From: an uncultured virus (IMG/VR IMGVR_UViG_3300032167_000055)
Taxonomy: Duplodnaviria; Heunggongvirae; Uroviricota; Caudoviricetes
Length of the DNA stretch: 64,000 bases
IMG/VR virus record: IMGVR_UViG_3300032167_000055
Reading direction: 5' to 3' (one strand)
Each line of letters begins with the position of its first letter. The first letter of the stretch is position 1. A program made the position numbers and the translations under genes. Positions 2,879-55,410 of the stretch are shown here, piece after piece. The notes beneath the pieces are model-generated. The model searched no databases. It was not told the origin of the DNA and was given only the letters and a program-made list of their open reading frames with translations.

Positions 2879-4798
2879 ATGCCGATTTTAGATACAGAAA
2901 AAATTTTAAATGGTACTGATACCAAGCAGATTATTCATGCATATGAAAATCTGAAGAGTCAGTATTCAGATGAAACGGCAAGAGATTATCGTACCTATTA
3001 TATTGGAAAGCCTCTTTCCTTTATAGTAAAGAACGCGAAATATATTATACCTGAACCTCAGTTTGGACTTCCTTTTGTGAGATGGGTTGCTAAGGCATTT
3101 CCTAATCCTTATCGTAATATGATTGCCATTAAGCAGTGTATCGAAGATTACTGGATGACTAATCGTGAGAAAATGCATCCTAGTATGGAAAAGATGTACG
3201 CTGATGCAGTTAACGAAATAGGATCTATCCTTAAGAGCAGATCTCCTGAAAGTGCAACTGAGATGTGTATGTTCAAGGATGATGTATCTGATGAATTCTT
3301 TGATAATTGCTATGCTGCTTTATGTAAAAAGAGACTTGAAAATAATGATGAGTGCGCAACAACTTTATTTGGTAACGATGTACCTTATGCAGGTTGTAAT
3401 GATTTTGATTCTTATATCAAGTCATGCCCTCATCAGATGAAAGTTATGTATATGACACCTTATGCAAAGGAGCTTTGTTTGGAAGGCGTTCTTTGTGAGA
3501 GTTATTCATCTATGATAAATGAGAACTCTACTGGTGGAGATAATAAAGCAACAAATCTTGTTTCGTGCGAAACTGTACAAAATCTTGTACTATCTGAACG
3601 TTTCATGGAAGCTGTAAACCAGTTTTCTAACATCCAACTAAGAACTTTGGTTAATGGAATGATTCGTGCGGATATTGCAGATGAAATTGTGACAGCATTC
3701 AAAGAAGCAGCTGAAGATACGATTAATCCTGTATATGATAGTTCCAGATCTGCAGTAAATGCGATTATGGAAGAATCCGTATTCGATGAAATGTATAAAG
3801 AAGAAAGAGCTTCAACAAAAGCTGAACTTCTTAATATGAAACATGATGTGTATGAATCTGTTAGACAGACTATTCAGAATTATTATGTGGTTCTTGAAGA
3901 AACTGATATTTTACCTGAAACTGAACTTTTCAGTGTAATTAAGGAGTCTATGGGTATTGAAGGACCCATCAGTGTAGGTGATGCATTTAAACTCATTAAT
4001 GAAGCAGTTTCTGAAGTAGAAGCAAATGAATCCTCTTTTTTTGAGAAAGCGGGGGACGGGTCTGCTAATAAGATAATTCAGAGATCACATCGTATGTATA
4101 GAGAAATTGATGAACCTGTTAAAAAAGGTTCAAATAATTCATCTAAAGATAGTGATGATGAAGATGCTTTAGAGGAAGAAGACGATGAAGCGGAACTTCC
4201 CAAGTCTACTAGGGTAGCTAGTGATGACTTGCCTGATTCTTCGAATCCTAACGCTACCAATTCTAAACCACAGAAAGTAAAAGAGGGTTTTTTGACAAAA
4301 GTTCAAAATAAAGCAATGGATGCCCATAAGAATAGTAGAAAGAATTCTGCTAAACTTAGACAAACTGGTACAGCTGTTAAAAATGCAGGTACTGCAGTTT
4401 TAAAGATTCCTGCTGGACTTCTTAATGGGTTAAAAGATATGATCCAAGGATTTGACAAGATGGATGATGATCGAAGAAAAGCATATATGATGCAACCCGG
4501 TTATAGAAAAAAGGTTATTAAGAATCTTAGAGTTGCAGCTACGTATGGTTTAGCATGGCATACTAAAAAGATGCTTATTCCTGTAGTTTGGTTTGGAAGA
4601 AAGTTATCGAAAGAAAAAAATAAGAGAATTCGTAATGAATTTGCACGAGAACTTGATACAGAAATCAAGGTAACCGAAGCTAAAATTGAAGATGCAATGG
4701 CAGCTGGTGATCAAAAACAAAGATACCAACTTATTCGTATTCGAGATGAATTAGCTAGACAGAAAGAACGTGTAAGTACTAACGGAAAATATATCTAA
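2879..4798 (+). CDS. Virion head-associated protein, 639 aa
   Basis: Lies in the capsid operon; many hydrophobic-x-E-[SAG] sites (VLCES, FMEA, FKEAA, IKES, INEA); basic helical C-terminus. Confidence 0.55.
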   Translation: MPILDTEKILNGTDTKQIIHAYENLKSQYSDETARDYRTYYIGKPLSFIVKNAKYIIPEPQFGLPFVRWVAKAFPNPYRNMIAIKQCIEDYWMTNREKMHPSMEKMYADAVNEIGSILKSRSPESATEMCMFKDDVSDEFFDNCYAALCKKRLENNDECATTLFGNDVPYAGCNDFDSYIKSCPHQMKVMYMTPYAKELCLEGVLCESYSSMINENSTGGDNKATNLVSCETVQNLVLSERFMEAVNQFSNIQLRTLVNGMIRADIADEIVTAFKEAAEDTINPVYDSSRSAVNAIMEESVFDEMYKEERASTKAELLNMKHDVYESVRQTIQNYYVVLEETDILPETELFSVIKESMGIEGPISVGDAFKLINEAVSEVEANESSFFEKAGDGSANKIIQRSHRMYREIDEPVKKGSNNSSKDSDDEDALEEEDDEAELPKSTRVASDDLPDSSNPNATNSKPQKVKEGFLTKVQNKAMDAHKNSRKNSAKLRQTGTAVKNAGTAVLKIPAGLLNGLKDMIQGFDKMDDDRRKAYMMQPGYRKKVIKNLRVAATYGLAWHTKKMLIPVVWFGRKLSKEKNKRIRNEFARELDTEIKVTEAKIEDAMAAGDQKQRYQLIRIRDELARQKERVSTNGKYI

Positions 4799-4812
4799 GG
4801 AGGTAATGACTA

Positions 4813-5847
4813 GTGATTGTAAAACATGCTAGAGAAATACCTCTTTTTGAGTCGCTTGGTATTTTTACTGAAGCACCTAAAAAGAAAAGAAAACCTAGAG
4901 TCATTTCAGTAAGACCAATTCGAAAGGATTATACATCAATGGTTGATCCGGATGAATTGATTGATATTGATGATATAGACTCTTTAGGAGATGATTTATC
5001 TGATTATGATTCACTTGATATGGATATAGGTGATGATTTAGCAGATGATGAATTATTAAATGATACACCTATAGAAGGTGACGAAGATGATTTTAATATT
5101 GGTCAAGATGACATTCCTGATGATATTGGTGAAGAACCTATAGACGGTGATGAAGAATTGCCTGATTTTGAAATTCCTGAAGATATTAGTTTTGACGATT
5201 TGACATTAGATGATGATCAAACGCAAAATGATGTACCTGCAGAAGAAATAGAATCACCAGAAGATCAAGATACATCTGATGATGACCAAACTGTTGAAGT
5301 ACCTGAAGGTGAAACTACTGATACTAGCACGGATACAACAGAACAACCTGCAGAGCAACCAGAGGGCGAACAACCTACTGAAGAAATACAAGAAGGAAAT
5401 GAAGTCATCGATGCTACTGGCAGTGAAATGCCAGAAGATATAGGTGCTGAAGTTGATATAGCTGCTGCTGATGGAACTGATTCTTCAGCTGTTAGTACAG
5501 ATACTTCGGTTGATCCTTCTGCTGGTACAGATGAAACATCCATTACAAAGGATGATATGAGAAAATATGAGTTGTTTAAGAGATTTATGAATCTTTTAAA
5601 CACAGTACAATACTTTATAGATAAATTAGAAACTGGTGTTTCTGATAATATAAAGTTTGAATATGCCGCTAATAAGGCACTTATAAAGTTCAAAGCTTTG
5701 GAAGATTTGTTAAAAGATTACATGCTTTTAAAATTTCAGAATGATAGTTTCTTACAGAACTCATTCTTTTATGAAAAAATAAAAGCATCATCACTGTTAT
5801 TACTTGAACTTATGAATTTAAATAAAATTACAAAAGATGAGAAATAA
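4813..5847 (+). CDS. Highly acidic low-complexity protein, candidate prohead scaffold/core, 344 aa
   Basis: D/E-rich disordered middle; N-terminal LFES and FTEA motifs; directly upstream of the probable capsid gene; SD AAGGAGGT. Confidence 0.5.
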   Translation: MIVKHAREIPLFESLGIFTEAPKKKRKPRVISVRPIRKDYTSMVDPDELIDIDDIDSLGDDLSDYDSLDMDIGDDLADDELLNDTPIEGDEDDFNIGQDDIPDDIGEEPIDGDEELPDFEIPEDISFDDLTLDDDQTQNDVPAEEIESPEDQDTSDDDQTVEVPEGETTDTSTDTTEQPAEQPEGEQPTEEIQEGNEVIDATGSEMPEDIGAEVDIAAADGTDSSAVSTDTSVDPSAGTDETSITKDDMRKYELFKRFMNLLNTVQYFIDKLETGVSDNIKFEYAANKALIKFKALEDLLKDYMLLKFQNDSFLQNSFFYEKIKASSLLLLELMNLNKITKDEK

Positions 5848-5951
5848 CAGTAATTTAAAATTACTTCTATTGAGGTAATAAACCTAAAACATATGTATTA
5901 TGAAACCCTTATACGTTAAACTAAAAAATAAATATAAAGGAGGACGAGATA

Positions 5952-7697
5952 ATGTCATTGGCATTTCTTGAATCTGTAAAGGATTTCAATGCAGCTACTA
6001 CTATCGGTGGTTTCAATCTCGCTAACGAAGAGAACGGTTTTGACGCTACTTTTGAAGCAGCTGTAAACGAATTAGAACAGAGTAGAATTAATTATTTCAT
6101 GGATATTGCAGCAATGATCAAGAATCCCGAGATCATGGCAGCTTTCAAGGAGAGCGCATTGTCCAGTATCAAGACTGAGTCTGATCAGAGAAGTGATGTT
6201 GATAAGTGGGGTGCATACTCCAATATGTATAACCAGGTTTCCCAGCTGTGGGATAACTGTACTGCAGACTTCGTACGTGAGTCTACTACAGTAGGTCAGT
6301 TGATGCCTATTAAGGCTATCGATTATCCTGTATTGGTTAAGCAGCATCTGTCTTTGGCTACCAAAGATATTCTTCAGACTGAAGTAACCAAGAGTCCTGT
6401 AATCAAGAAGCAGATGGAGCAGGTTTGGATTGTTGACAACCAGACTCAGGATCGTTGGAGATATCCTCAGTGCTTCTACAATGAAGATTATAAGACCATT
6501 TATGCAGCAGGTAAGGGTCTGCCTATCAAGGAAGACGTTGTTAAGCTGCCTATTTTCAATTATGATATCATCGGCAATTTGACTGATGCTGTTGTTCCTG
6601 CAAGAGAGAAGTTTACCTTCAATCTTAAGATCAAGGCAGTAGTAGCCGGCGATGTACAGATTCCTGTAAATATGTGGATCAATGTTCATACTTCTCAGTG
6701 GATGGGTGGTAACATTGATGCTAAGTATACTGACGCTGAAGGTAATGAAGTTGAAGTTAAGGATATGCTTTCCGGTAACGTTGACTTCATCAGCAACACT
6801 GTAACTCTTTCTTCTGCATCTGGTGCTGTTACCGGAGTTATCTTCGAAGGCTACCTGAGCAATGAAAAGAATGAAAGAGCCGTATCTTTCGATTACACTC
6901 GTGAAGAGCGTGAATGGAAGATTGAAGACGGTCACAGAGTAAACATCCCTTACAGCATCGAGCAGCTCGATGATGCAAAGGCTCTGCTTAATATGGATCT
7001 CTATAAGAAGACATATGATAACATGGCTGAGTACCTTACTCAGATGGAGGATTCTCAGGTTATCGACTTCTTGGATGAGCAGTTTGATCACTTTACCGGT
7101 CTTGAGCTGGATCCTCTTCAGTGGAACAGCTTTGTAAGATTTAAGGATTTCAACTGTGATTCTACAATTCAGACTGTTGCATTGCAGTCAGAGTACATCG
7201 AGAAGCAGCTTAAGTGGGAAATCGATCGTTTCATCATTGATTTGACCAATACTGCTAAGATGGAAGATTTGACTTTTGTTATCTATGGTAATCCTAAGTA
7301 CGTTTCTCTGCTTGGCAAGAACGTTAACTGGGTTCTTAACCAGGGTAGCACAACCGGCGGTATTAAGCATAACTACAGCTATGGTGTTATGACTACCGGT
7401 AATGTAAAGGTTCAGGTTGTTTCTGCACTCAAGTTTGATGAGAAGCATCCTAATCATCAGGGATTGAGAATCGTGCCTATCGCATTGAATCCTGCTCAGA
7501 TGACCTTTAAGCACTTTAAGTACAATACCCATATCCTTACTGCTAAGGACAGCGCTTACAAGGCTCCTGATCTTCCTGGCGGTTCTTACACCAACCTGAT
7601 GGGTGTATCTCGTTACACAGATGCAGCTGTTCAGGGTATCCAGGGTCTGGTAACCTTCAGCAATGCTGAGTTCATCGATTCTAGCTTCAATCGCTAA
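5952..7697 (+). CDS. Major capsid protein precursor (probable), 581 aa
   Basis: Strong highly-expressed codon bias; SD AAGGAGG; ~110-aa helical propeptide with FLES/FEAA/FKES/VRES sites; followed by a strong terminator. Confidence 0.72.
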   Translation: MSLAFLESVKDFNAATTIGGFNLANEENGFDATFEAAVNELEQSRINYFMDIAAMIKNPEIMAAFKESALSSIKTESDQRSDVDKWGAYSNMYNQVSQLWDNCTADFVRESTTVGQLMPIKAIDYPVLVKQHLSLATKDILQTEVTKSPVIKKQMEQVWIVDNQTQDRWRYPQCFYNEDYKTIYAAGKGLPIKEDVVKLPIFNYDIIGNLTDAVVPAREKFTFNLKIKAVVAGDVQIPVNMWINVHTSQWMGGNIDAKYTDAEGNEVEVKDMLSGNVDFISNTVTLSSASGAVTGVIFEGYLSNEKNERAVSFDYTREEREWKIEDGHRVNIPYSIEQLDDAKALLNMDLYKKTYDNMAEYLTQMEDSQVIDFLDEQFDHFTGLELDPLQWNSFVRFKDFNCDSTIQTVALQSEYIEKQLKWEIDRFIIDLTNTAKMEDLTFVIYGNPKYVSLLGKNVNWVLNQGSTTGGIKHNYSYGVMTTGNVKVQVVSALKFDEKHPNHQGLRIVPIALNPAQMTFKHFKYNTHILTAKDSAYKAPDLPGGSYTNLMGVSRYTDAAVQGIQGLVTFSNAEFIDSSFNR

Positions 7698-44759: not shown

Positions 44760-46082
44760 TTAAACTCCTATCATTTTACGAACTCTTGCAAGATCGTCTT
44801 CAGAGTATACGTTATCATTAACTGCTTCAGTCATGAAACTGATAACATCATTTGCTTCGTCTTCAGTTAAAGAAGATTCACAAACAACTGCGTCAAAACC
44901 TGACACAATAGTATTTTCTACGCCTTCTTCAATAGGCTCTTCACCTGAAGGCTCTTCTCCGGCGGGTTCTTCTGTTACAGGTTCTTCTTCACCTTTACCA
45001 CCCTTATCTTCTTTAGCCGGTTCATCTGCCTTAGGTTCTTCAACCTTCTCTTCAGCACCTTCTTTTACAGGTTCTTCTTTAGCAGGTTCACCTTCTGCAG
45101 GTTCTTCAGATGCGGGCTCTTCTTTTTTATCATCTTTATTCATTGCATCCGCAATAAGCTGGTCGAACTTCTCCGCCATCTCTTTCTCTTCATCAGATAA
45201 CTTGATCTTCAAAGATTCAAGCTTTTCAACGATAGAACAATCAGCTCCTTCAGTTACAACATCGTTACCAGATTCAAGAGCTTTCATCTCATTTGCTTCA
45301 TCGATCTTAGCCTTAATTTCTGCCTTCTTAACTTCATCATTTTCCTTAGCGGCCTCAAGATAAGAGGAAACTAAACCAGGAAGCTGATCCGGCATAGCAA
45401 CATCAAACAAGAAATTGTCATTAGCCATTTCTGCAAATACTTCATACTGTGTAGAAGTAATGAGACCTGCATTAAATGATTCAGTAATGAAATGGTTGAA
45501 TCTTTCTCTCTGAGCATCAATCTTTTCATTTACCTTTTCATTGAATACTCTAAGTCTTTCAATTTCACCAGAAACAGACTCGAGAACTGTGAGCATATAA
45601 TCTCTAAGTTCATTACTGATGAGTCCCTTGCTGTTCTCTTCAAAAACATCGAGCTTCATAGATTTTATTTCGTTAGTAGTCAACATGATATCATGTCCTC
45701 CTTCATAAACAACTTTACCGCGTTTTAACGCGTCTTTATTAACTTTAACACCTAAGGAATATAAATCCTTAACGCATTTGTCAATATCGGTTTTGGTAGT
45801 TTTCATATCATCCATACGTCCATTAAACTGGGTTCCTTTTTCCTGTCTTTTTTTAGGATCAGAAGCCTCCATCTGGATACGTTTAAGATATTTAACTTTG
45901 TCGCCAAGTAAATTCATTAATCTACCAACTTCAGCACTAACTGTTCCGTCAGGACTTCCTGTAGGTAAATTTTCTCTACGAATTCTTTCTCTTTCAGCAG
46001 CTTTTGCAAACTGCTTTTTAGTTGTATAAATTGTACTGCCGTCTTTAGCAGTAGTTTTTATATATTCTTTTTTACCAAACAT
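44760..46082 (-). CDS. Probable prohead core/scaffold protein, 440 aa, with a possible internal start at 45686
   Basis: Directly downstream of the protease; about 10 hydrophobic-x-E-[SAG] sites; acidic EEP repeats. Confidence 0.6.
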   Translation of the reverse strand: MFGKKEYIKTTAKDGSTIYTTKKQFAKAAERERIRRENLPTGSPDGTVSAEVGRLMNLLGDKVKYLKRIQMEASDPKKRQEKGTQFNGRMDDMKTTKTDIDKCVKDLYSLGVKVNKDALKRGKVVYEGGHDIMLTTNEIKSMKLDVFEENSKGLISNELRDYMLTVLESVSGEIERLRVFNEKVNEKIDAQRERFNHFITESFNAGLITSTQYEVFAEMANDNFLFDVAMPDQLPGLVSSYLEAAKENDEVKKAEIKAKIDEANEMKALESGNDVVTEGADCSIVEKLESLKIKLSDEEKEMAEKFDQLIADAMNKDDKKEEPASEEPAEGEPAKEEPVKEGAEEKVEEPKADEPAKEDKGGKGEEEPVTEEPAGEEPSGEEPIEEGVENTIVSGFDAVVCESSLTEDEANDVISFMTEAVNDNVYSEDDLARVRKMIGV

Positions 46083-46097
46083 AGTTATCTTTCTCCT

Positions 46098-47021
46098 TTA
46101 AAATGAACTTAAGAAATTACTAACTTCATGTTTTGTTTTGGGAGAAATATTAGCATAGATTGTGTTATCACCATCTCTAATAATTGCATGATTGAGATTA
46201 TTGTCAAATCCTACAATATCATCAAGAGATAAATCAAATGCTTCCAAAATAACCTGAGTGTTAGGATCTTTCATACCTGTATATTCCAGAATCTCCTTAA
46301 GAGGAATTAATACATCCTGAGTATACTGGTTTCTGATATCTTCAATTTCTCTAGCTCTGTCAATTCCGGCAGATTCTAAAGATACCAAAGCAGAAGACTT
46401 CATGATAAACTTAGGTTTGCCATCCATATTAGCCTCTTTATGAGAAGGATATAAAACCCAGTCGTAAGTTATAAGTTTTCTTACGATTACATAAGGTTCA
46501 CCTTCAATCATCTGTATACCAGCAATTGCTCTACAACTAAAGGATGGAATGAGACCTTGAATAATCTCATCACAGAAACCTCTACCTGCTTCAGTACCAG
46601 ATGCAGTCTGAATCTTAGCTCTAAGAATGTCTCCATGAACTTCAGGGCATAATATTTTATGAGATCTTCTGGACATTTCAATTGTTTGAATTCTTTCAGA
46701 AGATAAATCCTGGTTTTTATGAAGAGCGTATGGATGATCCATTTCACCGTACCAACTATTAGTTGATAACATGGTTACAATTCGCTCTGCCTTAAGCATA
46801 TCATTAATATTGGGACCCCAATATTTTCTACCGTTTCGATTTATACATCTGAAGGTTTGTAAAACCGTATCGAATTCCGCATATCTCGTACTGGCACTGT
46901 CGTTATATTTCAAATTGGAGATAGTATTATCTGACGGAGAAACCTGTTCAGAAATATACATAAGACCAATATTTCCAGCACTCTGATTACAGAAAATTTT
47001 AGATGATGTTGCAGTCATCAT
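46098..47021 (-). CDS. Prohead core protease (T4 gp21-like), 307 aa
   Basis: NRNGRKY, GEMDHP, SHKI, PSFSCRA, ITYDWVLYPSH; late promoter at 47056-47067. Confidence 0.9.
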   Translation of the reverse strand: MMTATSSKIFCNQSAGNIGLMYISEQVSPSDNTISNLKYNDSASTRYAEFDTVLQTFRCINRNGRKYWGPNINDMLKAERIVTMLSTNSWYGEMDHPYALHKNQDLSSERIQTIEMSRRSHKILCPEVHGDILRAKIQTASGTEAGRGFCDEIIQGLIPSFSCRAIAGIQMIEGEPYVIVRKLITYDWVLYPSHKEANMDGKPKFIMKSSALVSLESAGIDRAREIEDIRNQYTQDVLIPLKEILEYTGMKDPNTQVILEAFDLSLDDIVGFDNNLNHAIIRDGDNTIYANISPKTKHEVSNFLSSF

Positions 47022-47130
47022 AGGTTAAACCACCTTTCTTTTAAATTTATCTGTTTAGAGTATTGTTTTTGTGCGATTTTTACAACTAAAAGAAAAATAA
47101 AGTTCCAAAAAATAAACGTATATTATTTTT

Positions 47131-47384
47131 ATGTATTTAAATACATATACATGTTTTAGGATTTAATTTATCCGGAAACGTAATCTTAAAGTCAAAATAT
47201 TTTTGAAAGTATACTTATGACGTTTATTAACAAATTACAAAAGATGTTAAAGTCTTTTGTAATACCAAACTTGATTAGAAAATGGTATGTTAAAATTGTT
47301 TGAGTATAGACGTTTGAATGGCGGTGGTTCCGCCATTTAGACATTAAAGGATTTTTGGGTTTTGTTTACCCAAAATTCTTTTTT
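47131..47384 (+). ncRNA. Candidate structured early non-coding RNA, ~250 nt
   Basis: Early promoter at 47119-47126, several hairpins and a three-way junction, terminator at 47346-47384; a new promoter at 47390-47397 serves the next gene. Confidence 0.5.
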
Positions 47385-47430
47385 GTAGATATATTATTTT
47401 TTAGTATGTTTACAGAAAGGAGCCTATGAC

Positions 47431-47766
47431 ATGAAAATTACTGATGAACAAAAACCACGACTTAGAGTATTCTTAAGTCACAAGATGAGTGGATTATCAG
47501 AGCATCAAGTACATCAAATTCGTATCAATGCAAAGCATCAAGTTCGTGCTAAGTATGGTAAAGAATACGAAATTACATTTGTCGATAATTACCACCATCA
47601 CAATGTACCAGTCAACGCTGGTAGATTATGGCATTTAGGAGAATCTATTAAAATACTTGATTCTTGCAATGCTGTATATTTTGTTCCAACACATTGGATG
47701 AAAGCAAAAGGTTGTTGGATTGAAAGATTTATTTGCTTAATCTATAAAGTGAAAATATTAAAATAA
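47431..47766 (+). CDS. DUF4406 / nucleoside 2-deoxyribosyltransferase-like protein, 111 aa
   Basis: VFLSHKMSGL ... ILDSCNAVYF..HW.KAKGC.IE. Confidence 0.7.
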   Translation: MKITDEQKPRLRVFLSHKMSGLSEHQVHQIRINAKHQVRAKYGKEYEITFVDNYHHHNVPVNAGRLWHLGESIKILDSCNAVYFVPTHWMKAKGCWIERFICLIYKVKILK

Positions 47767-47776
47767 ATGAACAGGA

Positions 47777-49195
47777 GTGATTAACACAATGGGAAAACGA
47801 AGAGTTCAAGTTGAACGACTCAATTGGGACGCATGTGCTTTCTCAGATATTTCTACAGGAAGAGGGTTTTTTATTACAGACCCACCTGAGGTAGAGATTG
47901 ATGAATCAAGAAAGAAAGCTTTGTATGGTCCTCAATCTCCTCTTTATGGTACCACGTTTTCTGATGAACAAAGTTTTCAGGAACGTTACCGTTGTAAATG
48001 TGGAGAATTTAAAGGTACTATTTTTGAGGATGAAATTTGTCCTAAATGTGGTACTAAAATTGAATTTAGAGATGTAGATCCGAGGATGACAGGATGGATT
48101 CCTCTTGGTAATAAGAAAATCATTGCACCTCATTATTACAGACTACTTCAGCAAGCTATTGGTAGAGAAGAATTTCCCGAGATCATCTTCTTAAAGAAAC
48201 GTGTAGACCGTGATGGTAGACGTGTTGATTTAACGGAAGAAGAAATGAAGGAATTTGATCCTAAGAGCCCATTCTGTGGTATTGGTATCGAAGAGTTTCG
48301 AATGAGGTATGACGAAATCATAGATTTCTATAAGAAAAAGAAGCCCAATAAGGCTAAGACGTTTGATATGCTTAAGAACGAAAGACTTAAGGTATTCACG
48401 TCACATATTCCTGTTTACACTACATTACTTAGACAACAGTCAGTAACTTCAGAAAACTTTTATTTCACAGGTATCGATAAGGATATAAATACCTGTACGA
48501 ATCTTGCAAGAAATTTAAGAGATTCTGAAGAAATCGAAACACCTGTAATTCTTAACAGAATTCAGTCACGTGCCAACAAGATTTGGGAGTTTAACTTTGA
48601 ACTCTTGAATACTAAAGATGGACTGATTCGTGATCAGCTCATTGGTGGATCGTTAAATTTCACAGCACGTAATGTAATCGTACCTGATCCTACTTTACTT
48701 GATAACGAAGTAGATTTGGGTTATAGCTGTTTCTATGTAATGTTTAAATTAAAGATCATTCACTACCTCATGAAGATTCATGATATTTCATTAGCTCAGG
48801 CTAATACTATTTGGGAGCAAGGATATAATTTTGATCCTCGTATTTATGAAATCATGAAACTTATTATTGAAGTGGAGAAACCTTCTGTTGTAATTAACAG
48901 AAATCCGACGCTAAATTATTATTCCATTATTCTTATGAATATCAGAAGAGTAGTACCTGATAGTCAGTGTTATACATTAGCAGTACCTCTATCGATATTG
49001 CCTGGATTAAACGCCGATTTCGACGGGGACATCCTCAATATCATAGGTATAATGGATGAAGCAGTAAAACAAATGTTTCGTAAGTTTGATCCTGTAAAAC
49101 ACATGATTACATCACGTGACTCAGGATTGCTTAACGATTATTTTGCTGTAACAAAAGGACAGAAGATTGACGTATTTAATTTCTGTCATATGTAG
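47777..49195 (+). CDS. RNA polymerase beta' subunit, N-terminal half, catalytic, ~468 aa
   Basis: CKCG...CPKC zinc finger, KDGLIR, NFTARNVIVPDP, NRNPTL, NADFDGD at 49010-49030. Confidence 0.95.
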   Translation: MINTMGKRRVQVERLNWDACAFSDISTGRGFFITDPPEVEIDESRKKALYGPQSPLYGTTFSDEQSFQERYRCKCGEFKGTIFEDEICPKCGTKIEFRDVDPRMTGWIPLGNKKIIAPHYYRLLQQAIGREEFPEIIFLKKRVDRDGRRVDLTEEEMKEFDPKSPFCGIGIEEFRMRYDEIIDFYKKKKPNKAKTFDMLKNERLKVFTSHIPVYTTLLRQQSVTSENFYFTGIDKDINTCTNLARNLRDSEEIETPVILNRIQSRANKIWEFNFELLNTKDGLIRDQLIGGSLNFTARNVIVPDPTLLDNEVDLGYSCFYVMFKLKIIHYLMKIHDISLAQANTIWEQGYNFDPRIYEIMKLIIEVEKPSVVINRNPTLNYYSIILMNIRRVVPDSQCYTLAVPLSILPGLNADFDGDILNIIGIMDEAVKQMFRKFDPVKHMITSRDSGLLNDYFAVTKGQKIDVFNFCHM

Positions 49196-49263
49196 AATTT
49201 GAGAGTGTAGTGAGATTTATTTCTCACTACACTTTTCTTTTTATGAAAGGAAATAAAAATACT

Positions 49264-49899
49264 ATGAAAATCAAATTATGTATGGATTTAGAAACATCTA
49301 TGGAAGATAAAACTATAGGCGTATCTAAGGAAATTTTTGATTTACTTAATACTGAGTATGTAAGTATAATCAGATATCCTTTAGAAAACGTAGATCAATT
49401 CATCACAGGATGTAAACTTATTTGTATTGATGAATTAGATAATGGAATTTGCAAAGTTCCGTCAAGTATAGTAAGTACTATCGGACTGGATGCTTTTGGG
49501 GATGTTATATTATTAAGTCTTGAAGGAAAAGTGATGTTATATGATACGCAAAAATCACCTTTGAGTACTGAAATTGAAAAAGAACGATTAAAAGAATTAG
49601 CTGTAGAATTAAAGGCATTTGCTAATGAAAATATGATGATGACTCGTAAAGAATATTATGAGTCACAAGGATTTTCAGGCAGTAAAATTGATAGACCTGA
49701 CGATCCAGTTGATTCTGATTTTGTAATTCATGTTGCAGAATTAAAGAAAATGGTTGAAGGTTTTATTGACCATTGTAAAAATAATAATACAACGGATACA
49801 CTAAAAGAAATAAGTGATTATTTATATGATTTAGGTCTTGACCCTGAAGAAGTATTAAATGATCCAGATTATATTTTAGAAAGATTTCAAGGAGAATAA
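49264..49899 (+). CDS. Protein with a degenerate RNAP beta'-like double-psi beta-barrel N-terminal domain, 211 aa
   Basis: Ungapped 50-aa alignment to the upstream beta' catalytic region; GLDAFGD at 49483-49503. Confidence 0.6.
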   Translation: MKIKLCMDLETSMEDKTIGVSKEIFDLLNTEYVSIIRYPLENVDQFITGCKLICIDELDNGICKVPSSIVSTIGLDAFGDVILLSLEGKVMLYDTQKSPLSTEIEKERLKELAVELKAFANENMMMTRKEYYESQGFSGSKIDRPDDPVDSDFVIHVAELKKMVEGFIDHCKNNNTTDTLKEISDYLYDLGLDPEEVLNDPDYILERFQGE

Positions 49900-49900
49900 T

Positions 49901-50425
49901 ATGAGAGAATATAAAATAACATGTAATAAATGTGGTAAAGAAATATCAGAAGCACAAATAGCAACTTTTAAATTATGCGGTGATAAATTTAGACCTGCTG
50001 GATGTATGTGGAGAGATAACATAAATAAGAAGTTAGTTGACATTGAATTATGTGAGTCATGCGCAAAAATTGTATATGGAAAGATTTACAATTTGACGAC
50101 AAATTTCGATACTAAAGTTTCATGCCCTAAAGATGATACCATGGATATAAACAAACCTTATGTACATATAGGCTCTAATTATATTTACTCATTACGTAAT
50201 GTCGATGAATTTATTCAAGCAAACTCAATAGGTTTTAAACTTATTAGAGTTAATAACAGGCGTACTGATGGTTTTGATCAACTTGTTTCGATTGAATTTA
50301 GAGTTGGAAATTTTGATGATACTGATTTTGAAGATAGAGTTATTGAAAATCTTCAGGATTTTAAAGATTTATTTATTGATTATTTTCCTGATACACCAAT
50401 TGAATATTTTAAAGGAAAAGAATAG
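49901..50425 (+). CDS. Zinc-ribbon hypothetical protein, 174 aa
   Basis: CNKCGKE...ELCESC. Confidence 0.7.
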   Translation: MREYKITCNKCGKEISEAQIATFKLCGDKFRPAGCMWRDNINKKLVDIELCESCAKIVYGKIYNLTTNFDTKVSCPKDDTMDINKPYVHIGSNYIYSLRNVDEFIQANSIGFKLIRVNNRRTDGFDQLVSIEFRVGNFDDTDFEDRVIENLQDFKDLFIDYFPDTPIEYFKGKE

Positions 50426-50437
50426 GAGGGTTATATA

Positions 50438-50614
50438 ATGACAAATGTAATTATTCAACCTACGATTGATACAGCATTTGGAATTGATGATAAATATGAT
50501 ATTGTAAATGCTGATACTCTTAATGAACTACATATGAGTATTAATCATTCCGATCTTAGTGGTATAATAGAAGTGAATGATTATAAAGTAACAGATGGTG
50601 AAAAGTATTTATAA
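50438..50614 (+). CDS. Small hypothetical protein, 58 aa
   Basis: SD AGGAGG; fills the operon gap. Confidence 0.55.
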   Translation: MTNVIIQPTIDTAFGIDDKYDIVNADTLNELHMSINHSDLSGIIEVNDYKVTDGEKYL

Positions 50615-50616
50615 CA

Positions 50617-50817
50617 ATGGAGGACATAAAAATGGGTGGAATAGATTGGCAGTGTGGAATCGATACATATTCTAGAAATTTAGACTTTAGTGGAGATACA
50701 ATTAGTACGTATGTAGAATGTCCTGAATGTAGTGGTACCGGTAAAGATAATAGAAGTCTTGATGGACCTTGTTGGAAATGTAAAGGACTAGGATCAATTA
50801 GAAAAGAAGATGAATAG
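50617..50817 (+). CDS. DnaJ-type zinc-finger mini-protein, ~61-66 aa
   Basis: CPECSGTG and CWKCKGLG. Confidence 0.7.
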   Translation: MEDIKMGGIDWQCGIDTYSRNLDFSGDTISTYVECPECSGTGKDNRSLDGPCWKCKGLGSIRKEDE

Positions 50818-51079
50818 GAGAAAATATATGGCGAGTAAGATCGATCAAAATAATTCAAATACACAAAGAGATACAAAAATAGTTCTCACTATAGAAGATG
50901 AACTTCGTTGCGGTAAAATAATAACTAAAACAGATATCAGACGAGAAGGAGGTCTGATATCTGTCAATTTTGAATACGACAGAGGATCAGGTATAGGAAC
51001 TGATCCTGAAGATATAAAGAGGGTTTTAGACCTATGCAATGTAAGTTATAAATCTAATGAAACACGATACAAAATATAG
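50810..51079 (+). CDS. Hypothetical protein, ~83 aa
   Basis: GSGIGT motif shared with the next gene. Confidence 0.65.
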   Translation: MNRRKYMASKIDQNNSNTQRDTKIVLTIEDELRCGKIITKTDIRREGGLISVNFEYDRGSGIGTDPEDIKRVLDLCNVSYKSNETRYKI

Positions 51080-54588: not shown

Positions 54589-55410
54589 ATGGCTGAAAAG
54601 AAGTCAACAAGATCAAAGAAATCAACTTATGTAGCACCTGAAGAGGAAAAGGTTGTAAAAGACAAAGCTACAGAACCTACTGAAAAGGTGGAAGAAGCAC
54701 CCGAACCTGCAGAGTTGTCAGTTTCCGATTACTTCAACTATGTAAAAGGAATGAAAGAAGAAACTGATTCTGAAGAAGTAAAACGAACTGCAGATGTTTG
54801 TATGAGTCTGCTTAAGAAGTTTGAAATCCTTGGTCAGAAGGAAGCTGCAAAGAAAGCAAAGAATGCTTTCGATGTATTGAAACGGGACCTTGAACTCTAC
54901 GAGAAAGGAATTAAGCAGTACGTTCATATTGATAATGTTACCAAGTATCTTAAAGAGATTTCTGGTCATTCCGTAAAGCTTATCGAGCTTGAGAATTTCC
55001 CTAGAGAAATTCCAGATGATGTAATGGATAAATGGTTGGCAGTACGAGAATGTTTTGATGGTGCCTACGTAGTTTTCACAGATTACACTGAGAAGACTGA
55101 AGAGAAGAATACAGCCGCTGCTGCATCTGGAAAAACATCGACTGCTGCAGCAGTCGAGAAGAAGAGAAAAGAGAAAGATCCTATTCTCTTCGGTATTCTT
55201 AAAGTTGACAAATCTGTTTCATCTCTTAAGAATAATACTTATGAAAAGATGTATTTTGTCGCTGATTGGGTCGATGATTACTGCGACCTGACATTTGACA
55301 AGATGATCGAAGCTATGGCAGAAAAACTCAAAATGGATAAGTCTGAAGTTGTTAAGGAAATTAAGCCGGTTACAACCAAGGAAGAATTTAAGAAAGAGGC
55401 AGGTATTTAA
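54589..55410 (+). CDS. Hypothetical early protein, 273 aa
   Basis: Early promoter at 54543-54550; KDPILFG...YFVADW.DDYCDLT motif; high codon bias. Confidence 0.8.
   Translation: MAEKKSTRSKKSTYVAPEEEKVVKDKATEPTEKVEEAPEPAELSVSDYFNYVKGMKEETDSEEVKRTADVCMSLLKKFEILGQKEAAKKAKNAFDVLKRDLELYEKGIKQYVHIDNVTKYLKEISGHSVKLIELENFPREIPDDVMDKWLAVRECFDGAYVVFTDYTEKTEEKNTAAAASGKTSTAAAVEKKRKEKDPILFGILKVDKSVSSLKNNTYEKMYFVADWVDDYCDLTFDKMIEAMAEKLKMDKSEVVKEIKPVTTKEEFKKEAGI

Follow-up and report, generated by a model that had tools for sequence, protein, structure and literature searches.

A near-orphan gene behind the non-virion RNA polymerase β′-N gene of an uncultured jumbo phage encodes a conserved module of about 50 residues joined to a β-rich domain

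An uncultured jumbo phage (278,849 bp; IMG/VR record rated complete, G001) carries, directly behind its non-virion RNA polymerase (RNAP) β′-N gene, a real, near-orphan accessory gene, whose product contains a conserved module with no description in any of the libraries we searched. These two results are firm; a link of the product to RNAP function is, as far as sequence comparison reaches, a candidate only. Our leading reading, which we hold tentatively, is that the gene encodes a lineage-specific, non-catalytic accessory binding protein of the phage. The incomplete aspartate triad of the product, its acidic composition and the lack of a match to any enzyme family suggest that it is probably non-catalytic.

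The window, by which we mean the whole 64,000-nt stretch of DNA that was analyzed, agrees with the G001 record in 100% of sampled words and also encodes a recognizable major head protein, NAD-dependent ligase, helicases, head protease and RNAP β′-C. The ORF lies on the + strand at 49264..49899 and, read from ATG 49264, yields a protein of 211 aa (P0001); an alternative start at ATG 49243 gives the 218-aa form recorded by gene callers (P0003), and the longest frame opens at GTG 49210. Identical copies of the 218-aa protein are recorded on 20 contigs and a homolog with 76% identity exists, both of which identify the ORF as a real gene. Its position directly behind the β′-N gene, asserted by an earlier sequence-only reading, was confirmed by matches of the 472-aa upstream product (47777..49195, +) to the Pfam family RNA_pol_Rpb1_2 (PF00623; 2.3e-9) and to phrog_2987 (4.2e-56). 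This β′-N protein has an intact catalytic loop, 364 metagenomic homologs at E ≤ 1e-10 and, among cultured phages, nearest relatives below 30% identity. Its stop codon is separated from ATG 49264 by 68 nt, and between the stop and the start of the ORF stands a terminator-like hairpin of 15 pairs with a 6-nt loop, followed by a T-run (49201..49236, +); the interval 47000-51000 contains three terminator-like sites, compared with 0.9 ± 1.0 in shuffled sequences. On its 3′ side the ORF is start-stop coupled to the next one, with its stop 1 nt before ATG 49901 of a Cys-rich, 174-aa ORF (49901..50425, +), for which Pfam gave only weak zinc-finger hints and which is not homologous to the gene in the same position in the relative represented by locus L040. 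A series of small + strand ORFs follows.

Several other ORFs of the window are worth recording. The small-gene run to which the ORF belongs includes a 66-aa ORF with two CxxC pairs (50617-50817, +), whose weak matches to the DnaJ central domain and to anti-TRAP-like proteins, at about 2e-4, fall below the cut-offs. Just 5′ of β′-N, a 111-aa ORF (47431-47766, +) has a partial match (8e-7) to a nucleoside 2-deoxyribosyltransferase PHROG and may have some relevance to modified nucleotides. On the opposite strand, a 440-aa ORF (44760-46082, −) with a long Glu/Pro/Lys-rich stretch of low complexity and without a PHROG match adjoins the head maturation protease (46098-47021, −) and may encode a scaffold-like protein. 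Farther downstream, a 273-aa ORF (54589-55410, +) matches PHROG 10081, annotated as 'transposase', at 4.5e-45, with no Pfam match at E ≤ 0.001; a transposase-like gene thus sits within a jumbo phage genome.

The protein consists of four segments, which would have different histories: an N-domain (residues 1-88; 49264..49527, +), a connector (residues 89-124; 49528..49635, +), a conserved module (residues 125-175; 49636..49788, +) and an acidic helical tail (residues 176-211; 49789..49896, +). The sequence-only reading had recognized two parts, a small barrel and an acidic helical domain. This layout holds in so far as the N-part is β-rich and the C-part is acidic and predicted to be helical, with AlphaFold2 helices at residues 103-209 (pLDDT 70-94) and a pI of 4.4 for the whole protein (N-domain 4.2, tail 4.05); the C-part, however, is more than a generic acidic tail, as it carries the conserved module. 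The tail proper, in which 11 Asp and Glu stand against 2 Lys and Arg, is not conserved outside this phage.

The module contains the motifs TRxEYY, G-[FL]-S-G-S and DRPDDP and a following helix. Exhaustive phmmer searching of 1.84 billion representatives returned 20 proteins at E ≤ 0.001, 19 of which match only query residues 109-194; the clusters that these represent (P0005-P0023) match the module with E values from 4e-17 to 3e-4. Thirteen positions are nearly invariant (T127, R128, E130, Y131, Y132, G136, S138, G139, P145, D150, F153, H156 and L160), and P0001 has all of them, which makes it a member of this unnamed family. AlphaFold2 models the module with pLDDT 81-94. We found no match to it in Pfam, PHROGs, NCBIfam, PADLOC or the PDB, and NCBIfam and PADLOC returned nothing for P0001 as a whole; the best hit in the PDB profile search was SpoIIIAG (E 0.0066), aligned over non-module columns. 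The module is thus conserved, modular, present in about 20 clusters of related uncultured phages and undescribed in the libraries searched.

The settings in which the module occurs vary. It forms the N-terminus of helical proteins of about 180 aa, precedes zinc ribbons, follows Cys-containing N-parts, or stands alone, as in an 84-aa ORF (L086 7992-8246) of a 200,990-bp phage record (G007), which lies between gyrase-A-like and RecA-like genes, 2.5 kb upstream of an RNAP β gene. The connector, comprising a strand and a long helix (AlphaFold2 helix at 103-123), also recurs: BLASTP aligned residues 89-121 of P0001 with residues 68-100 of P0005 at 45% identity (E 4e-7). In P0005 the module comes first and the connector-like segment after it, an order reversed relative to the ORF, and we therefore conclude that these parts have been shuffled between phages.

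A further feature of the family concerns two module columns, corresponding to P0001 residues 157 and 171, at which most module proteins have Cys (H-C ... C-K). P0014, P0018, P0019 and P0020 are without both, and P0001 keeps the second only. The paired loss hints at a common role for the two residues, for instance in a metal site or in a contact.

In contrast to the module, whose relatives are numerous, the N-domain has a single homolog among the 1.84 billion representatives (exhaustive phmmer), the 134-aa protein P0004, with 76-78% identity. The domain contains an RYP motif and a D-A-F-G-D stretch, and P0004 keeps both (R-Y-P/R-x-P and D-A-F-G-D), as expected at this level of identity. AlphaFold2 gave no usable model of this part, with pLDDT 33-50 in the full-length prediction (21-row alignment) and a mean of 34 for residues 1-100 when the single homolog was used. 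The low-confidence models contain strands and a single helix, arranged such that a strand-strand-helix-strand unit could be present twice; a test for an internal repeat in residues 1-96 was not significant (P = 0.67). Neither Pfam nor the PDB profile search returned a match for the N-domain at E ≤ 10. A weak match of the N-domain HMM in loci L012 and L013 (E 0.019) was rejected, as it aligns a helical-looking segment.

In a language-model protein atlas, the named clusters nearest to the N-domain are CDC48_N and Molydop_binding, with scores of 0.80-0.83 and 141-150 of 256 features in common, although scores below 0.9 count as leads only according to the tool and a third of shuffled proteins reach 0.8. 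Both families, CDC48_N (PF02359) and Molydop_binding (PF01568), are double-psi barrels. The N-domain resembles them in its size of about 90 aa and in a G-D pair before the last strand, but differs in lacking any HMM match to them (Pfam, E ≤ 10); moreover, the atlas clusters comprise archaeal or bacterial cellular proteins of about 90-110 aa, not phage proteins, which are without the C-terminal module. The CDC48_N model and that of the AbrB/MazE swapped-hairpin barrels (PF04014) both gave nothing on the phage record at E ≤ 10. From these predicted features, we consider the N-domain possibly, though not quite probably, a small barrel of the cradle-loop or double-psi type.

We infer the fold of the N-domain, and likewise the mode of binding and the target of the protein. 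The protein would act as a binder and not as an enzyme. Its conserved module would attach to a conserved partner, and the specific activity would come from the variable domains appended to the module, which elsewhere may be coiled coils, zinc ribbons, nothing at all or a fragment of virion-RNAP β′ and here are represented by the acidic N-domain. The most likely such activity would be the sequestering or blocking of a host or phage protein. A complex prediction of β′-N with the ORF product scored 0.00, which carries no weight either way.

The distribution of the ORF is patchy and not syntenic. Among 80 β′-N loci from IMG/VR, the module or the N-domain occurs in two (L006 and L007), in which β′-N is 100% identical to that of the window, and the remaining 78, with non-identical β′-N, contain neither. 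The module is also absent from the whole records of all five relatives. The gene downstream of β′-N in a relative with 84% identity is unrelated to the ORF, and a relative with 76% identity differs in this region as well. Given the absence from 78 loci and these differing downstream regions, we conclude that the ORF is an accessory gene specific to this lineage, that it lies in a variable region and that it does not belong to a conserved RNAP gene set. Within IMG/VR, the module was found in only two phage types and P0005 in none; most module proteins lie on Logan, ENA or NCBI contigs, which are up to 181 kb long. Searches of cultured phages by tblastn with P0001, P0008 or the L086 module ORF gave no match, and scanning JGI metagenome contigs and GTDB genomes for the module yielded no confirmed case.

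A distribution of this kind is also what one would see if the ORF were cargo of a selfish or fast-turnover region, with the module carried in small mobile genes that move between jumbo phages, possibly alongside introns or homing endonucleases, and with no dedicated link to RNAP. We regard this explanation as unlikely. Besides the restriction of the module to two IMG/VR phage types and its absence from the five relatives, the variable and permuted architectures speak for it, as do the complete difference among relatives in the region 3′ of β′-N, the insertions in the β′-N gene of relatives, one of them with an HNH_3 ORF, and a NUMOD4 ORF that lies 2.7 kb from the module ORF of L086 (4664-5287, between gyrase-B-like and gyrase-A-like genes). 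However, neither within the ORF of the window nor next to it did we find a nuclease, an integrase or a repeat boundary, the module is too small for an endonuclease and matches no homing-endonuclease family, and its 13 strongly conserved positions argue for a selected molecular function.

The β′-N genes of the relatives deserve a separate description, as they are interrupted and the copy in the window is not. In L040 (5554-7490; relative G005), β′-N breaks after residue ~298 and again before the catalytic-loop exon, and the insertion at ~298 encodes a 296-aa ORF with HNH_3 plus HTH. In L008 (about 6300-6840; relative G002), the frame departs from β′-N within the catalytic-loop codons, and the match is taken up again farther downstream. 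By their sequence, these interruptions resemble introns that carry a homing endonuclease.

The sequence-only reading had interpreted the N-domain as a stand-alone, catalytically degenerate double-psi barrel of RNAP β′, and the 50-residue ungapped alignment that it offered is correct to the letter. ORF residues 32-81 align with residues 370-419 of β′-N, the barrel segment of that protein, and score 22 with BLOSUM62. The 13 identities comprise R, P, N, VP, SI, D and GD and, in addition, V, I and I. The substitution of the middle catalytic Asp by Phe is likewise real: D-A-F-G-D of the ORF stands opposite D-F-D-G-D of β′-N, and the D-x-D-G-D aspartate triad is incomplete in P0001 and P0004 alike. 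By contrast, the proposed resemblance of the first strands dissolved into 2 identities in 19 positions, and the absence of the ~45-aa helical insert of β′, though true, carries no information, because it follows from the small size of the ORF alone.

How far this likeness exceeds chance was assessed with several measures. The quoted alignment lies on the best diagonal between the two proteins, which holds all of the top 8 of 68,526 50-mer pairs, the next diagonal scoring 11, and both proteins have a spacing of 43 residues between the Arg of R-x-P and the final Asp of G-D. BLASTP did not list the alignment (best E 2.6), and the gapped Smith-Waterman score of 34 was matched by 26.8% of 1000 shuffles (P = 0.27). 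With hhalign, comparing a 2-sequence ORF profile with a 15-sequence β′-N profile, the same region was the sole match, at a probability of 0.83% (P = 0.067). HMMs of the β′ barrel gave the N-domain 2.9-3.7 bits. Among 3000-5000 shuffles, 1.3%, 2.2% and 2.8% scored as high, and among 1678 real 92-aa windows taken from other phage ORFs 0.8-2.3% did so; the power of this test is low, as the control, the barrel of the phage's own virion β′ and thus a true paralog, obtained only 10.8 bits. Against virion β′, the best local alignment of the ORF fell on a matching RYPL motif (score 44; 4.2% of shuffles). PF00623, which detects the neighboring β′-N at 2.3e-9, gave no match to P0001 at E ≤ 1 and none to residues 1-105 at E ≤ 10, and no match in Pfam, PHROG or the PDB backs a polymerase barrel in the ORF product. 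A recent DNA duplication of the 3′ part of β′-N was considered and rejected, the identity of the two aligned segments being an unremarkable 55/150, rank 12 of 423 in-frame windows. Statistical support for the likeness is therefore marginal, barely above chance.

These results bear on the possibility that the N-domain is a minimal double-psi barrel descended by duplication from the neighboring or the virion β′, with loss of the middle catalytic Asp, and that it binds phage or host RNAP, for example at the β-subunit barrel, as a decoy, assembly factor or inhibitor. In common with the RNAP β′ barrel (PF00623), the ORF has R-x-P, a V-P-x-S-I stretch, the terminal G-D, the spacing of the neighboring β′-N and, as far as can be guessed from prediction, a matching order of strands and helices; it differs in the Phe for the middle Asp, in having no significant sequence or profile match and in being without the insert and the other β′ regions. 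The coincidence of the best diagonal and of the sole hhalign match with the barrel segment, the RYPL alignment with virion β′, the rank of the HMM score within the highest 1-3% for shuffles and 0.8-2.3% for real windows, the adjacency of the ORF to β′-N and the fusion of one module protein, P0012, behind a virion β′ fragment would all accord with such a descent. Nevertheless, every test is marginal and the comparison was chosen after the fact. A 278-kb phage has hundreds of 92-aa windows, and a 1-2% tail in the HMM score is therefore expected several times by chance; the low-powered HMM test neither excludes nor supports descent. The unremarkable DNA identity, the poor first-strand alignment and the absence of the gene beside β′-N at all 78 loci with non-identical β′-N further count against it. 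We consider descent from β′ together with a decoy role rather improbable, and we read the likeness to the catalytic barrel as, at most, a barrel-type sequence pattern common to both proteins, which does not demonstrate descent.

A third explanation starts from P0012, in which the module is fused behind a segment matching the virion β′ polypeptide at its C-terminal end (phrog_2962, 1.2e-18). This segment aligns with residues 679-749 of the 794-residue virion β′ of G001 at 35% identity over 71 residues (E 7e-9), a better match than that to the non-virion β′-C (E 0.005). On this basis, the module might be a docking or packaging element for the virion RNAP or for the virion generally, and the ORF product might be virion-associated or injected together with the virion RNAP. 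We judge this distinctly improbable. P0012 is a cluster with only one member, comes from contigs no longer than 1776 bp and could be a truncated or recombinant gene; longer fused forms of the module and virion β′ were not found, which is weak evidence, and the ORF of the window lies among small non-structural genes. An origin of the module from the virion β′ tail, with which it has a G-L-S-x-S-x-I stretch in common, was examined in five phage records (G001 and four relatives) and rejected, as the tails scored 0.8-2.7 bits with no gradient of likeness. Finally, it is very improbable that the product joins a catalytically dead copy of a phage β′ barrel to the module and attaches to the split RNAP of the phage itself, at the β-subunit barrel or a subunit junction, as a switch, assembly chaperone or inhibitor between the virion and non-virion enzymes.

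Among described systems, the lineage-specific accessory protein that we favor can be compared with gp68 of phiKZ, the fifth, phage-specific subunit of the non-virion RNAP. By description, both are phage-specific, are without characterized relatives and occur in phages with split RNAPs; homologs of gp68, according to parts of PMC7598289 and PMC7824862, are found in all such phages, whereas the ORF is absent from the close relatives examined. The same portions of these two papers describe β′ and β barrels each with its own inserts, in addition to gp68 (PMC7824862, PMC7598289), and a common split site after the β′ barrel (PMC7598289), and in these portions a stand-alone inactive barrel is not mentioned.

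If the barrel reading were true, the ORF would encode the first stand-alone pseudo-catalytic RNAP barrel, and this would bear on the origin of two-barrel polymerases from small barrels and on the regulation of two polymerases in jumbo phages. As things stand, the case illustrates that a barrel-like pattern ending in G-D can mimic the β′ catalytic loop. The module, tightly conserved over about 50 residues in uncultured jumbo phages and missing from the libraries searched, lends itself to pull-down experiments and structure determination.

A last observation concerns the virion β′ gene itself, which encodes a single long polypeptide in G001 (C1 about 2967-7058; L001) and G002, with open frames of 866-934 aa. 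In G003, G005, G006 and G007, virion β′ matches as two separate pieces, which are ~110-150 kb apart in G003, G006 and G007 and adjacent in G005 (236424-237452 and 237688-239070). The split state of virion β′ therefore varies within the clade.
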